This document shows, piece by piece, positions 1-13,654 of a stretch of 64,000 nt of DNA. The notes under the pieces are model-generated. The model saw only the letters and a list, made by a program, of their open reading frames with translations. It was not told where the DNA came from and ran no database searches. How positions within the stretch are numbered: position 1 is the stretch's first letter; each line of letters starts with the position of its first letter. Origin of the DNA: Escherichia coli (GTDB lineage Bacteria; Pseudomonadota; Gammaproteobacteria; Enterobacterales; Enterobacteriaceae); NCBI RefSeq assembly GCF_003334765.1, contig NZ_QOWT01000003.1; one strand, written 5' to 3'. A program made the position numbers and the translations under genes.

Positions 1-59
1 ATCGAACCAAGGACACGGGGATTTTCAATCCCCTGCTCTACCGACTGAGCTATCCGGGC
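1..59 (-). tRNA. pheV: tRNA-Phe, 5' part only (3' end lies beyond the window start)
   Basis: Reverse complement of 1-59 reads GCCCGGATAGCTCAGTCGGTAGAGCAGGGGATTGAAAATCCCCGTGTCCTTGGTTCGAT, i.e. acceptor stem, D-arm, GAA anticodon loop and start of T-arm of tRNA-Phe; lies next to yqgA as in E. coli. Confidence 0.9.
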
Positions 60-164
60 AACGGGGCGCATTAAACCTGATTCGCCTCGTCTCGTCAATC
101 AAATTTCTTCAATTTAGTGCAGACTGCACAATCTATCATCACTTTGCCGCTATTGCACACATTG

Positions 165-872
165 TCAGGCAAACCAGGCGGTCCAGGCGGCGGAAAGCGG
201 CATTGCCAGAAGGAGTGCTGGAAGCATGTTGACCACCGGGAACATTTTAATACCACAGATGCGTAATCCGGTTGCCAGCAGCAATAAACCGCCTACGGCG
301 CTGAAGTCTGCCATCATCGACGGTGTGGTCAGCGGTAATATCAGCGCGGCAGCCCACGCCAGTGTTAACTGGATGATCAGTAATGGAATGCTAATCACCG
401 ACACCGCAATACCCAGCGAGCAGGCGAAGATCATCGCCGTAAAGAAATCAAGAAATGACTTGGCGATTAAAATACTCGGATCGCCGGTCATCCCTTCGTT
501 CATCGCCCCGAAGATTCCGGTGCCGCTGGCGCAAAACAGAACAATAATCGCGACAAAATTCTGAATAAAAGATTCATGCGCTGGCTTCTTACGCGAGTGG
601 TGAAACAGATTATGCGCTTTGACGACCACTGTATTGACGCCTTTTTCCAGCAGACAAATTTCGCCGATTAATGCTCCGAGTAAGGTTGCTAAAACCATCG
701 CCGGAAGGTTGGCGCATTTCACCACCAGTAAAATACCAATCCCCAGCGATGCCAGACCAAAAATTGATGTCATGGAGACGCGGATACGTTCCGGTAAGCG
801 TTGGCTAAGGAGTGCGCCGAAAACGCCACCCAGTAAGACTGCACTTGCGTTGATAAAAGGGCCGATGACCAC
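165..872 (-). CDS. yqgA: DUF554 family inner membrane protein YqgA (235 aa)
   Basis: 235-aa hydrophobic ORF; position between pheV and speC matches E. coli. Confidence 0.85.
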
Positions 873-1270
873 AAGAGTTCCTGTTAGCTGTATTGTTTGA
901 TTTTCTTATTATGAACTTTTGGCGCCGTCGATGGCTTGTTTGTTCGCAAAGTCCTGGCTTGCACGCTTTAGCGAAAGGTGCCATGATTGCGCGAATTTTC
1001 TCCTCTCTGTACGGAGTTTGCCCGATGCACGCCACCTCCTTACATTCTCTCGCTTATCGCCGTTTTGCGCGAAACTCTTCTCTTTTTATGCTACTGCTCA
1101 TGCGGTGAAGTTAACGCACGCTCACTGCAGGACAACAGTAAAATCAGAGCGTTTCTGCTTTTACTGATGTCTGGTGGTCGGAGCTGGTGACCAGTTTGAC
1201 CCATATCTCATGGGGCAGGGTTTTCCACCTTGTCCGGTATTCTTACTTCCCCTAAACGGGTTTTGCGCTT

Positions 1271-3406
1271 ATGAAATCAATGAATATTGCCGCCAGTAGT
1301 GAACTGGTATCCCGACTTTCTACTCATCGCCGCGTGGTGGCGTTGGGAGATACTGATTTTACGGACGTCGCGGCAGTCGTCATTACCGCTGCGGATAGTC
1401 GCAGTGGCATTCTTGCGTTGCTTAAGCGCACCGGTTTTCATCTACCGGTGTTTTTGTATTCCGAACATGCTGTTGAATTACCTGCGGGCGTTACGGCGGT
1501 AATCAACGGCAACGAGCAGCAGTGGCTGGAGCTGGAATCCGCAGCCTGTCAGTATGAAGAGAATTTGCTGCCACCGTTTTATGACACGCTGACGCAGTAC
1601 GTTGAGATGGGTAATAGCACCTTTGCTTGCCCTGGACATCAACATGGTGCGTTCTTTAAAAAGCATCCTGCCGGACGCCATTTTTACGATTTCTTTGGCG
1701 AGAACATCTTTCGCGCCGATATGTGTAACGCTGACGTAAAATTGGGCGATCTGCTTATTCATGAAGGATCGGCGAAAGATGCGCAGAAATTTGCAGCCAA
1801 AGTCTTTCATGCCGATAAAACCTATTTTGTGCTGAACGGCACATCGGCAGCGAATAAAGTGGTGACGAATGCGCTGTTAACGCGTGGCGATCTGGTGCTC
1901 TTCGACCGTAACAACCATAAGTCGAATCATCATGGCGCGTTGATTCAGGCGGGGGCGACGCCGGTCTATCTGCAAGCTTCACGTAACCCGTTTGGTTTCA
2001 TTGGCGGTATTGATGCGCACTGTTTTAATGAAGAGTATCTGCGCCAGCAAATTCGCGACGTTGCGCCAGAAAAAGCCGACCTGCCGCGCCCGTTTCGCCT
2101 GGCGATTATTCAGCTGGGAACCTATGACGGCACTGTCTATAACGCCCGTCAGGTGATCGATACCGTTGGGCATCTGTGTGATTACATTCTGTTTGATTCC
2201 GCGTGGGTCGGTTACGAACAGTTTATCCCGATGATGGCGGATAGCTCGCCGCTGCTGTTAGAACTTAACGAAAACGATCCGGGGATCTTTGTGACTCAGT
2301 CGGTGCACAAACAGCAGGCGGGATTCTCACAGACGTCGCAGATCCATAAAAAAGATAACCATATCCGTGGACAGGCGCGTTTTTGCCCACATAAGCGGTT
2401 GAATAATGCCTTTATGCTCCATGCTTCTACCAGCCCGTTCTATCCGCTGTTCGCCGCCCTGGACGTTAACGCCAAAATTCATGAAGGGGAGAGTGGGCGT
2501 CGGCTGTGGGCTGAGTGCGTTGAGTTGGGTATTGAGTCGCGCAAGGCTATTCTTACGCGCTGTAAGCTGTTCCGCCCGTTTATCCCGCCCGTTGTTGATG
2601 GCAAATTGTGGCAGGATTATCCGACGTCAGTGTTAGCCAGCGACCGCCGTTTTTTCAGTTTTGAGCCGGGGGCGAATTGGCACGGCTTTGAAGGATATGC
2701 CGCGGATCAGTATTTTGTTGATCCGTGCAAGCTGTTACTCACCACGCCGGGTATCGATGCCGAAACCGGCGAATATAGCGACTTTGGCGTTCCGGCGACG
2801 ATTCTGGCGCACTACCTGCGTGAGAACGGCATTGTGCCGGAGAAGTGCGATCTCAACTCCATTCTGTTCTTATTAACTCCGGCGGAAAGCCACGAGAAGC
2901 TGGCACAACTGGTGGCGATGCTGGCGCAGTTTGAACAGCATATTGAGGATGATTCGCCGCTGGCTGAGGTGTTGCCGAGCGTTTATAACAAATATCCGGT
3001 GCGCTATCGCGACTACACCCTGCGCCAGTTGTGTCAGGAGATGCACGATTTGTATGTCAGTTTCGACGTCAAAGACCTACAAAAAGCGATGTTCCGCCAG
3101 CAGAGTTTCCCGTCAGTGGTGATGAATCCCCAGGATGCGCATAGCGCTTATATTCGCGGTGAAGTGGAGTTGGTGCGGATTCGTGATGCCGAAGGGCGAA
3201 TTGCGGCAGAAGGGGCGTTGCCTTATCCACCTGGCGTGCTTTGCGTGGTACCCGGGGAAGTCTGGGGTGGGGCGGTTCAACGTTATTTCCTTGCGCTGGA
3301 AGAAGGCGTGAATTTGTTGCCGGGATTTTCGCCGGAGTTGCAAGGTGTCTATAGCGAAACCGATGCGGATGGCATGAAACGGTTGTACGGTTATGTGTTG
3401 AAGTAA
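1271..3406 (+). CDS. speC: ornithine decarboxylase, biosynthetic (711 aa)
   Basis: ORF translation MKSMNIAASSELVSRL... 711 aa, recognised as SpeC. Confidence 0.95.
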   Translation: MKSMNIAASSELVSRLSTHRRVVALGDTDFTDVAAVVITAADSRSGILALLKRTGFHLPVFLYSEHAVELPAGVTAVINGNEQQWLELESAACQYEENLLPPFYDTLTQYVEMGNSTFACPGHQHGAFFKKHPAGRHFYDFFGENIFRADMCNADVKLGDLLIHEGSAKDAQKFAAKVFHADKTYFVLNGTSAANKVVTNALLTRGDLVLFDRNNHKSNHHGALIQAGATPVYLQASRNPFGFIGGIDAHCFNEEYLRQQIRDVAPEKADLPRPFRLAIIQLGTYDGTVYNARQVIDTVGHLCDYILFDSAWVGYEQFIPMMADSSPLLLELNENDPGIFVTQSVHKQQAGFSQTSQIHKKDNHIRGQARFCPHKRLNNAFMLHASTSPFYPLFAALDVNAKIHEGESGRRLWAECVELGIESRKAILTRCKLFRPFIPPVVDGKLWQDYPTSVLASDRRFFSFEPGANWHGFEGYAADQYFVDPCKLLLTTPGIDAETGEYSDFGVPATILAHYLRENGIVPEKCDLNSILFLLTPAESHEKLAQLVAMLAQFEQHIEDDSPLAEVLPSVYNKYPVRYRDYTLRQLCQEMHDLYVSFDVKDLQKAMFRQQSFPSVVMNPQDAHSAYIRGEVELVRIRDAEGRIAAEGALPYPPGVLCVVPGEVWGGAVQRYFLALEEGVNLLPGFSPELQGVYSETDADGMKRLYGYVLK

Positions 3407-3410
3407 GAAT

Positions 3411-3446
3411 AAAAAAACGGGTCACCTTCTGGCGACCCGTTTTTCT
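3411..3446. terminator. bidirectional rho-independent terminator shared by convergent speC and nupG
   Basis: AAAAACGGGTCACC-TTCT-GGCGACCCGTTTTT hairpin flanked by A-run and T-run. Confidence 0.8.
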
Positions 3447-3454
3447 TTGCGTAA

Positions 3455-4711
3455 TTAGTGGCTAACCGTCTGTGTACCTGTCGGGACACGAACGTGTTTA
3501 TATTTGAACATCGCCATGAACGCGAAGGCCAGAACCACGGAGTAACCTGCGAAAATCAGCCATACGGTCTGCCAGTCGGTAATGCCGTTTTGGGTGTACA
3601 TCTCAACCACTTTACCGCTCACGATGCCGCCGAGGATACAGCCGAAGCCGTTGGTCATCATCAGGAACATCCCCTGCGCGCTGGCGCGAATTGCCGGGCT
3701 AACTTCTTTTTCGACAAACACCGAACCAGAGATGTTGAAGAAGTCGAATGCGCAACCGTAAACGATCATCGACAGTACCAGCAGTACAGTACCGAACGGA
3801 GTCGGGTCGCCGTAAGCAAACAGAGCAAAACGCAGGATCCACGCCACAATACTGATCATCATTACGTTCTTAATACCGTAGCGGCTTAAGAAGAACGGGA
3901 TGGTCAGAATGAACAGGGTTTCAGAGATCTGCGAAATCGACATGATGATTGACGCATGCTGCACGATGAAGCTGCTGGCAAACATCGGATCTTTGTCGAA
4001 GCTGTGCAGGAAGGTATTACCGAACATGTTGGTAATCTGCAGTTCCGCGCCCAGCAGCATTGAGAAGATGAAGAAGATTGCCATGCGCTTGTTTTTAAAC
4101 AGAGCGAATGCATCGAGGCCCAGCAGGGTTGTCCAGCTCTGATTCGCTTGCTGTTTAGCAACCGGAATATGCGGCAGAGTCAGGGTAAACAGAACCAGAA
4201 TGGCGGAAAGCGCTGCGCCAATATACAGCTGCATGTGGCTTAATTCGAAGCCGGACAGGCTCACCACCCACATTGCCATGATAAAGCCGATGGTGCCCCA
4301 GATACGGATTGGCGGGAAGTCAGTAACGATATCCATCCCGGCATTTTGCAGGCGATAGTAAGAGATGGTGTTGATTAACCCAAGCGTTGGCATATAAGCA
4401 AACGAGTTAATCAATATCACAAGGAACATCGCCTCCGGCGTAGTGACCTCTGCCGCCATGAACAGCGTGATAGCGCCAATGGTGTGGCAAATGGCATAGA
4501 CCCATTTCGCACTTAACCATTTGTCGGCCACAATCCCCAGCAGCGCAGGCATAAAGACCGCGGCGATACCCAGTGAGCTATAAACTGCGCCGATAGAAGC
4601 ACCGTCAAACTTCAGGGTAACAAACATATAGGAGCCGAGGGTCGTCAGCCAACTTCCCCACAGACAGAACTGCAGAAAAGAGAGGATTTTCAGCTGCAGC
4701 TTAAGATTCAT
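3455..4711 (-). CDS. nupG: nucleoside:H+ symporter NupG (418 aa)
   Basis: ORF track 3455..4759; known protein starts MNLKLQLKILSFLQF 16 codons downstream of the ORF start; GAGGAA RBS upstream of that ATG. Confidence 0.93.
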   Translation of the reverse strand: MNLKLQLKILSFLQFCLWGSWLTTLGSYMFVTLKFDGASIGAVYSSLGIAAVFMPALLGIVADKWLSAKWVYAICHTIGAITLFMAAEVTTPEAMFLVILINSFAYMPTLGLINTISYYRLQNAGMDIVTDFPPIRIWGTIGFIMAMWVVSLSGFELSHMQLYIGAALSAILVLFTLTLPHIPVAKQQANQSWTTLLGLDAFALFKNKRMAIFFIFSMLLGAELQITNMFGNTFLHSFDKDPMFASSFIVQHASIIMSISQISETLFILTIPFFLSRYGIKNVMMISIVAWILRFALFAYGDPTPFGTVLLVLSMIVYGCAFDFFNISGSVFVEKEVSPAIRASAQGMFLMMTNGFGCILGGIVSGKVVEMYTQNGITDWQTVWLIFAGYSVVLAFAFMAMFKYKHVRVPTGTQTVSH

Positions 4712-4828
4712 GTTAATTTCCTCACATCGTGATGCGGATGAGTGTTTGAAAAAGCACATTTGACCGTGCGAGATGATGCGATTCTATCAACTTCGCGGAC
4801 TGGTTTTTTGTTACCTGTGGCAAATAAT

Positions 4829-13068: not shown

Positions 13069-13654
13069 TACGTAAAGCGTCCAGCAGCAGTTTCAACGCC
13101 TGACCACGGTGGGAAATGGCGCTCTTTTCTTCGCGGGTCAGTTCGGCAGCGGTTTTCCCTTCGGAAGGTACGAAGAAGATTGGATCATAACCAAAGCCAC
13201 CAGTGCCCGCTGGTTCACGAGTAATCACGCCTGGCCAGCTACCGTGGCATACCAGCGGAGTGGGATCTTCCGCGTGACGCAGATATACCAGCACGCAGTG
13301 GAAACGCGCCTGACGTTGGTCGTCCGGTACGTCTTTCATTGTTTCCAGCAGTTTTTGCAGATTCTTTTGATCGGTCGCGTCTTCACCGGAATAACGCGCG
13401 GAGTAAATACCCGGCGCGCCACCCAGCGCATCTACCGCCAGACCGGAGTCGTCGGCAATTGCCGGTAAACCGGTCACTTTTGCCGCATGGCGCGCTTTCA
13501 GAATCGCGTTTTCGATAAAGGTCAGGCCGGTTTCTTCAGCGGAATCTACGCCGAGGTCTGTTTGGGCAACGATATCAAGACCGAAGTCGCTAAGCAGCGA
13601 CGCCAGCTCACGCACTTTACCGGCATTGCCGGTTGCGAGGACAACTTTTTGCAT
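13061..13654 (-). CDS. rdgB: dITP/XTP pyrophosphatase RdgB (197 aa)
   Basis: [21 protein letters not shown]... recognised; 8-nt overlap with hemW. Confidence 0.95.

Follow-up and report, generated by a model that had tools for sequence, protein, structure and literature searches.

An upstream open reading frame and covarying RNA helices ahead of speC in Escherichia coli and other Enterobacteriaceae: a candidate uORF-dependent regulatory leader

The yqgA-speC locus

The 64,000-nucleotide stretch of Escherichia coli DNA analysed here, called the window throughout, starts inside a tRNA gene and carries, close to this end, the divergent genes yqgA and speC, the second of which codes for the biosynthetic ornithine decarboxylase. 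The genes of this region, with positions numbered along the window, are the following:

1-59, minus strand: tRNA-Phe (pheV); the window starts inside this gene
165-872, minus strand: yqgA (open reading frame list; RefSeq)
1271-3406, plus strand: speC, biosynthetic ornithine decarboxylase, the presumed regulated gene (open reading frame list; RefSeq)
3455-4759, minus strand: nupG

The initial annotation had drawn attention to a long spacer between yqgA and speC containing several short open reading frames, and both the open reading frame list and the RefSeq annotation bear this out, giving 398 bp (873-1270). The gene layout is the same in the RefSeq records of a 100%-identical strain, of a K-12-like strain and of MG1655, and the spacer was found in 5,421 of 5,426 complete E. 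coli genomes, at 90-100% identity. Judged from sequence comparison, the long spacer is not a peculiarity of E. coli, as yqgA-speC spacers measure about 370-515 bp in most of the Enterobacteriaceae genera sampled, with yqgA as the usual divergent neighbour.

The sample was assembled by a genome scan with the N-terminus of SpeC, which returned 80 loci; 65 loci, the three annotated E. coli records included, have an N-terminus at least 77% identical to SpeC and, together with the window, make up 66 regions. The comparison set thus consists of 66 Enterobacteriaceae speC upstream regions, to which Tatumella and Lonsdalea were added, where SpeC identity is only 64-68%. Across this material the spacer proved far more conserved and more structured than expected by chance. 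Conservation is unevenly distributed, and the part next to yqgA is set apart:

873-958, minus strand: yqgA-proximal part of the spacer, poorly conserved; in a 32-genus alignment conservation starts only at the CTTGCAC block

This part presumably holds the putative yqgA promoter together with a short 5′ UTR.

A putative promoter and the predicted speC leader

The conserved part of the spacer opens with a near-invariant alignment block, AAAGGTGCCATGATTGCGCGAATTTTCTCC, shared by the speC upstream regions:

959-987, plus strand: putative speC/yqgH promoter with an extended -10 element, assigned from the conservation pattern

The block contains a -35 hexamer TTGCAC (959-964), a spacer of 17 bp and an extended -10 element TGcCATGAT (979-987). 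Among the aligned regions it follows the pattern TTG(C/A)NC, a fixed distance, an invariant TG, one free base and the hexamer (C/A)AT(G/C/T)AT; the TTG, the TG at -15/-14 and -10 positions 2, 3, 5 and 6 are invariant in 58 of the 66 regions. This pattern of variation is the one expected of a putative sigma-70 promoter of the extended -10 type. The fit to the consensus is moderate (7 of 12 hexamer positions plus the TG), and a consensus promoter scan returned no plus-strand promoter at threshold and none in 873-958 either; since the scan missed the block, the assignment rests on the conservation pattern and not on match strength. In Pseudocitrobacter, where the uORF and the rod described below are deleted, the promoter block is retained beside the downstream hairpins, which fits the block as the promoter of speC.

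From this assignment transcription is predicted to start at about A994 (about 3,109,431 in MG1655), giving a leader of approximately 277 nt in which the ATG of the uORF would lie 31 nt from the 5′ end. The suggestion of the initial annotation that a long leader could carry regulatory RNA thus gains substance, as the promoter-like block predicts a leader of this length that contains covarying helices. Co-transcription of yqgH and speC is likewise inferred, from the lack of a canonical terminator between them and from the deletion variants. The Cappable-seq supplements hold no coordinates in the range of the speC leader, and the literature searched yielded no transcription start site, Rho or reporter data on it.

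The yqgH uORF: annotation and translation

Downstream of the putative promoter lies a short open reading frame preceded by a Shine-Dalgarno sequence:

1013-1016, plus strand: GGAG, the Shine-Dalgarno sequence for the uORF, 8 nt ahead of the start codon
1025-1108, plus strand: yqgH uORF (b4785 in MG1655), a coding sequence of 84 nt with 27 codons (RefSeq, three records)

In the 100%-identical strain the same open reading frame is annotated, at the same place, as a hypothetical protein. yqgH corresponds to 'ORF22' of Weaver et al. 2019, whose translation was detected by ribosome profiling with Onc112 and retapamulin, and served there as a model example of correctly spaced initiation peaks with the two drugs; the same authors assayed five uORFs other than yqgH for effects on the downstream gene (bioRxiv 10.1101/511675). 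It was recovered a second time by PIRT-Seq (PMC12350097). The initial annotation had regarded the short open reading frames of the spacer as non-coding; for yqgH, annotated and translated according to two methods, this does not hold, and not all of them are therefore non-coding. An eLife paper of 2025 lists speC among the uORF-associated genes whose ribosome-associated RNA increased more than 5-fold after tetracycline, a figure resting for speC on a change from only 4 to 22 reads; this response is weakly consistent with a leader under uORF control.

Adams et al. 2021 (PMC7815308) do not include yqgH-speC among the uORFs with a 3′ end at most 200 nt downstream, and the entries listed in their supplements comprise neither speC nor yqgH; no speC entry occurs in the accessible Rho data sets. 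No functional study of the speC leader was found in the literature searched, including searches on uORF, ribosome stalling, bicyclomycin and RNase III. As for protein families, three members of the peptide alignment match Pfam PF23506 (YqgH), the best with E = 7e-15; the output does not name the three, and the alignment contains three Escherichia-type peptides, that of the window included. The 28 non-Escherichia homologues give no match to PF23506, and NCBIfam returned nothing for the YqgH homologues, nor for SpeFL.

Conservation of the uORF

The exact 9-mer ATGCGGTGA occurs in 61 of the 66 regions, 160-182 nt before the speC ATG, and corresponds to the invariant ATG-CGG-TGA end of the uORF (1100-1108 in the window). 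All the uORF-carrying loci have an in-frame ATG preceded, at 5-14 nt, by a GGAG- or GGGG-type motif. These 61 loci span at least 10 genera, and the in-frame ATG and the exact end are also present in Tatumella and Lonsdalea. Between start and end the uORF occurs in 13 different lengths, from 18 to 37 codons, and is never out of frame. Two in-frame deletion alleles were seen within Escherichia: one in E. coli TUM2826, with 25 amino acids (L003, 1726-1803), and one in Escherichia sp. MOD1-EC7003, with 18 amino acids (L004, upstream of 2501); in both, the Shine-Dalgarno sequence and the start codon are retained, as is the terminal LLMR-stop.

The peptide alignment has no invariant residues other than M1 and the final M-R. 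The three codon positions contribute equally to the variable sites (22, 21 and 21 of 28), and synonymous and non-synonymous changes number 429 and 1004, from which the body of the peptide is judged to evolve neutrally, with no constraint on amino acids. The nucleotide composition of the body, by contrast with its amino acid sequence, is maintained: over the 61 loci it has 36% C, 16% G, 32% T and 17% A, it is C-rich and G-poor in every lineage, and the GC skew over 990-1110 is -0.3 to -0.5, a composition such as would be expected of a Rho loading site (rut-like). Owing to this pyrimidine-rich sequence, 60 of 61 loci have an open frame +2 across the same region as well; the open frame of the uORF is therefore, by itself, weak coding evidence.

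The codons of the uORF show a further peculiarity. The terminal Arg codon is always CGG, compared with 1 of the 180 internal Arg codons, and the stop codon is always UGA; the invariance of both points to a constraint at the nucleotide level. Arg accounts for 11.8% of the uORF codons, versus 6.6-7.5% in the other frames; these codons lie dispersed along the uORF, with no conserved positions and no tandem run, and the peptides are almost devoid of D, E, K and G.

RNA helices around the uORF end

The roughly 95 nt downstream of the uORF are nearly invariant. Together with the end of the uORF, they can form a set of helices numbered here by the segments that pair, numbers 1 to 4 following one another along the transcript:

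1101-1109, plus strand: segment 2, the uORF end UGCGGUGAA, which can pair with segment 3 and, in most other genera, with segment 1
1120-1184, plus strand: rod-like hairpin (RNAalifold consensus; pair counts)

In helix 2:3, positions 1101-1109 pair with 1120-1129; 94.6% of the pairs are maintained, and every change in segment 3 is compatible with wobble pairing. Helix 1:2, found in most genera except Escherichia, joins CUCACC (segment 1, just upstream) to GGUGAG around the loop AUGC and is 88.6% paired. The rod uses segment 3 as one side of its lower stem, with GCUCACUGC (1120-1128) facing segment 4, GUGGUCGGAGC (1174-1184); above it follow GGACA:UGUCU, CAGUAAAA:UUUUACUG and an apical stem CAGA:UCUG closed by a variable loop. 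The rod is 98.4% paired, with compensatory changes between AU and GC in the apical stem and between CG and UA as well as GC and AU in the lower stem; wherever a change affects one side only, the plus-strand RNA can still form a G-U pair, and Lonsdalea adds a further compensatory change, CGUUCA:UGAACG. In E. coli the rod folds with -36.2 kcal/mol (z = -2.7). Taking all the proposed pairs together, 95% of the cells are paired versus 36-49% in slid controls, and the observed covariation was reached by 0 of 500 shuffles.

Segments 2 and 4 would compete for segment 3. With the transcript cut before segment 4, helix 2:3 gives the minimum-energy fold in 21 of 33 species, and helix 1:2 does so in 10; adding segment 4, or blocking the uORF end as a terminating ribosome would, makes the rod the best fold in 30 of 33. 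The folding model suggests that 2:3 would form while the transcript is still growing, and the rod once it is complete or the uORF end is occupied. No U-tract follows the rod; the sequence there is CUGGUGACCAG. For segment 4, when freed from the rod, no conserved partner was found in the speC ribosome-binding site or the early coding region, where the positions of the predicted duplexes scatter among species.

A covariance model built from 33 sequences gives one strong match in the window, on the plus strand at 1088-1192, with 101 bits (37 bits on the minus strand). It matches 28 of 28 held-out speC loci that carry the motif, with 88-122 bits and minus-strand scores 65-75 bits lower, and no speF locus, distant ornithine decarboxylase locus or deletion variant. 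The only other match in the window (13580-13637, 17.6 bits, E = 0.2) is taken as chance. A scan of positions 1-4000 against Rfam 15 gave no family or riboswitch inside 873-1270, even at E up to 10. The initial annotation recognised no attenuator or riboswitch signature; for riboswitches and other known families this agrees with the Rfam scan, whereas the alternative 1:2, 2:3 and 3:4 pairings around the uORF stop amount to an attenuator-like signature, one lacking a terminator with a U-tract.

Two small features adjoin or overlap the rod. Directly 3′ of it, a hairpin CUGG-UGA-CCAG (1184-1194), left outside the pair counts, has equivalents of the form GGG...CCC or GUGG...CCAC in other genera, which by eye resemble covariation. 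The 3′ arm of the rod contains an invariant AUG with which a mini-ORF begins (1167-1190), coding in E. coli for MSGGRSW-stop; in Kluyvera, Mangrovibacter and others (among loci L032-L035, L041, L044 and L058-L060) its frame extends to a UGA that overlaps the speC AUG (AUGA), a layout typical of translational coupling. Since the mini-ORF has no Shine-Dalgarno sequence and is variable in length, conservation of the RNA sequence may by itself account for its presence.

Downstream hairpins and the start of speC

Two further hairpins lie between the rod and speC:

1213-1235, plus strand: hairpin P5, GGGCAGGG...CCUUGUCC, followed by a U-rich stretch (pair counts)
1249-1260, plus strand: hairpin P6, CCCC-UAAA-CGGG, 92.5% paired, with CG, UG, AU and GU variants

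P5, which lies 30 nt beyond the rod, has compensatory changes at 8 of 8 pairs and was flagged as terminator-like by a consensus scan; the U-tract that follows is weak and is unconserved in Cedecea-type sequences, and P5 may serve to pause transcription or to terminate it weakly. P6 covers the sole G-rich, Shine-Dalgarno-like bases before the speC AUG (CGGG, 1257-1260, 10 nt upstream), so that it would occlude the speC ribosome-binding site. The gene itself starts without a good Shine-Dalgarno sequence, with AUGAAAUCAAUG (1271-1282), and a second in-frame AUG lies three codons in, replaced by UUG in many genera.

Natural deletion variants

Five lineages lack the uORF module (three loci of Pseudocitrobacter, L027, L028 and L031, together with L040 and L045), which indicates that it is dispensable. 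The losses differ in extent: Pseudocitrobacter keeps the promoter block, P5 and P6 and has lost the uORF and the rod, whereas at locus L040 only the 3′ half of the rod remains. In Enterobacter sp. ENT03 the uORF is kept and ends with LTLG-stop 18 nt before speC, while the rod, P5 and P6 are lost.

Comparison with known uORF-controlled leaders

As in the Rho-dependent uORF leader class (tnaC, speFL, mdtU, mgtL, corL, toiL), a translated uORF lies within a long predicted 5′ UTR. The closest likeness is with mdtU-mdtJI, which also concerns a gene of polyamine pathways: the 5′ UTR has 278 nt, compared with about 277 nt predicted for speC; the 34-codon mdtU and the 27-codon yqgH come from the same ribosome-profiling screen; in both, conservation is concentrated at the C-terminal end of the uORF, where it overlaps predicted RNA pairing, and 100-160 nt separate the uORF stop from the main AUG. 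For mdtU, induction by spermidine, dependence on the start codon and dependence on Rho have been shown experimentally (Adams et al. 2021, eLife, PMC7815308). For yqgH-speC, comparable regulation is a prediction; furthermore, there is no similarity in sequence, and speC, being biosynthetic, would be expected to respond with the opposite sign to an exporter gene.

The speFL-speF leader regulates the paralogous ornithine decarboxylase gene, and there too a uORF precedes the gene and the peptide ends with Arg-stop; the 3′ end of speFL lies in a hairpin, with a Rho-dependent terminator and a rut site nearby (Herrero del Valle et al. 2020; Ben-Zvi et al. 2019). SpeFL (DUF2618), an ornithine-sensing arrest peptide, is conserved, with the HIRRXXH sensor, an aromatic effector domain and a mean column identity of 88%, while in YqgH the final M-R is the one constrained part. 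All three stop codons occur in speFL, whereas yqgH always ends with CGG-UGA. In the same data set, the SpeFL peptides upstream of the speF-type loci are 88% identical on average, and the HIRRXXH motif is absent from the YqgH peptide alignment. Because speC and speF are paralogues, it is tempting to relate the E. coli YqgH, with FARNS and 9 residues to the final R, to SpeFL, with FAHRNS and 9 residues to the final R; homology was nevertheless rejected, given an hhalign probability of 0.2% and a resemblance not common to other genera.

TnaC is characterized by the conserved residues Trp12, Asp16 and Pro24 and by a defined ligand. Like yqgH, tnaC is a short uORF that ends at UGA beside a rut-like region; in the tna operon stalling at termination is the regulatory step, and the ribosome stalled at the UGA stop blocks access of Rho (PMC12360218). 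In YqgH, a ligand or an arrest would be hypothetical, and the alternative helices and the rod of the speC leader are without counterpart in tna. With attenuators of the trp/his type the speC leader shares overlapping 1:2, 2:3 and 3:4 helices, among which the position of the ribosome on the leader peptide would choose; it differs in having no tandem regulatory codons and no U-tract after 3:4, and in the location of the stop codon inside segment 2. The leader thus shows neither the run of regulatory codons nor the U-tract after the 3:4 helix that mark classical amino-acid attenuators (trp, his, leu type).

Proposed mechanism and alternative explanations

The literature establishes that the uORF is translated, and the alignments document the conservation of its start, frame, end and composition and the covariation of the helices. 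Two selections are visible in these data, one on the translation of a pyrimidine-rich open reading frame with fixed start and end, the other on RNA helices, one set of which competes for the last codons of the uORF. On this basis, and by analogy with mdtU-mdtJI, speFL-speF and tnaC, we consider it fairly probable that the speC leader is a cis-acting, uORF-dependent regulatory leader of the same kind, which probably works through Rho. Besides the transcription start site, we infer for it the involvement of Rho, a sign of regulation and a signal.

In the proposed mechanism, the predicted promoter about 277 nt upstream of speC would give rise to a cis-regulatory leader transcript, whose yqgH uORF is translated; translating the C-rich, G-poor stretch would matter, the peptide itself would not. 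Ribosomes on yqgH would cover the rut-like stretch, and the key event would be the arrival of a ribosome at the fixed Met-Arg(CGG)-UGA end, which is embedded in mutually exclusive helices. A ribosome at CGG-UGA would leave segment 3 free to form the rod (3:4), while with no ribosome at the uORF end 2:3 would form first. Occupancy of the uORF and of its stop would in this way set both the loading of Rho on the pyrimidine-rich leader and the choice between 2:3 and the 3:4 rod, and these would determine the amount of transcription and translation that reaches speC. Control of Rho-dependent premature termination is favoured, following mdtU-mdtJI, speFL-speF and tnaC, and P6 may contribute control at the ribosome-binding site. 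The signal could be polyamines, ornithine or arginine, or else the general translation status. A more ambitious reading, which is tentative and rather doubtful, makes the leader an Enterobacterales-wide sensor coupled to translation termination, where the uORF end would be read by RF2 and the status of polyamines, ornithine or arginine (or translation capacity) would exert feedback control of SpeC through the competing helices; ornithine decarboxylase would then be under feedback with no conserved sensor peptide.

Rod-like RNAs of about 26 bp are within the size range of RNase III substrates. The rod, of about this length, could accordingly act as a purely RNA element, bound by a ligand, a protein or RNase III or serving as a stabiliser, in which case the uORF would be incidental and its end conserved only as part of a helix. 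The strong conservation and covariation of the rod and P5, and the position of the invariant 9-mer inside helices 1:2 and 2:3, agree with such an element; however, the Shine-Dalgarno sequence, ATG and frame are kept through 13 indel variants despite the unconstrained body, the AUGC loop of helix 1:2 is invariant although loop bases would be free to vary, and Escherichia, which lacks helix 1:2, still has AUG-CGG-UGA. As yqgH translation is also shown experimentally and no Rfam family matches, an RNA-only element appears unlikely. Attenuation by arginine, with ribosomes pausing at Arg codons, especially the terminal rare CGG, to select a helix, and with P5 and its U-rich tail as an intrinsic terminator close to speC, would couple the use of ornithine for putrescine to arginine supply. 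The attenuator-like 1:2, 2:3 and 3:4 alternatives, the share of Arg codons (11.8%, against 6.6-7.5% in the other frames), the invariably rare last sense codon CGG and the strongly covarying, terminator-like P5 would all suit it. Yet the uORF has no tandem Arg codons, only scattered ones that differ in position from species to species; a U-tract is lacking after the 3:4 rod, that of P5 is weak and missing in Cedecea-type sequences, and no 3′ end is reported in the leader; moreover, the two segments being 4 nt apart, a ribosome on segment 1 necessarily covers segment 2. Arginine attenuation is therefore regarded as quite improbable.

That YqgH is a small protein acting in trans, and that the spacer is long from housing an extra gene, could be argued from the existence of a gene name and of the Pfam family PF23506, and from the statement of Weaver et al. 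that tagged small proteins of the same screen were mostly detectable. Outside Escherichia, however, only M1 and the final M-R are conserved, with no codon-position bias, the composition mirrors a pyrimidine-rich RNA, and no terminator separates yqgH from speC, all of which makes such a role highly improbable. Older literature describes repression of speC by cAMP-CRP. This repression and the near-perfect, highly conserved repeat CAGTAAAA...TTTTACTG might suggest that a transcription factor controlling speC or yqgA binds the palindromic block as a DNA operator; but on the plus strand, and there alone, its one-sided changes remain compatible with G-U pairing (AU has become GU in 9 sequences, for example), the covariance model scores about 65-75 bits better on that strand, and the predicted transcription start is about 140 nt upstream of the block. 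We give a DNA operator hardly any credence. A CRP operator in the speC spacer, in particular, was rejected, the only matches having 2-3 mismatches and occurring at chance frequency. The uORF-dependent leader, with probable involvement of Rho, thus remains the favoured reading.

Implications for speC expression

In textbooks speC is 'constitutive', and older work described effects of polyamines and cAMP on its mRNA; no mechanism tuning speC expression was found in the literature searched. The annotation and translation of yqgH are already known. Three things were not found described in the papers and libraries searched: the pattern of its conservation over at least 10 genera, in which the end is invariant and the body neutral, the assignment of the promoter, and the covarying structure. 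A module made of uORF and RNA structure would give speC a concrete mechanism, testable by mutation, and would add an RNA family missing from Rfam; the lineages that have lost it naturally are ready-made controls. Selection that preserves position, composition and last three codons of a uORF, and not its peptide, would help to distinguish leaders controlled by translation as such from those controlled by an arrest peptide. If the sensor reading were true, every major polyamine gene of E. coli (speA, speC, speF, mdtJI) would be governed by a uORF.

Other features near the locus

Just past pheV, a tyrosine recombinase/integrase gene is found in the window-identical strain and in another E. coli (L002, 1-487; L001, 1-536), while K-12-type strains have yghD at the integrase position, a difference that points to an island carried at pheV by particular strains and lying beyond the window. 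At the other end of speC, between this gene and the convergent nupG, positions 3383-3452 have only sub-threshold matches in Rfam (STnc350 and STnc450, 17 bits) and contain a GC-rich hairpin with flanking A and T runs, which by its appearance looks like a bidirectional terminator.
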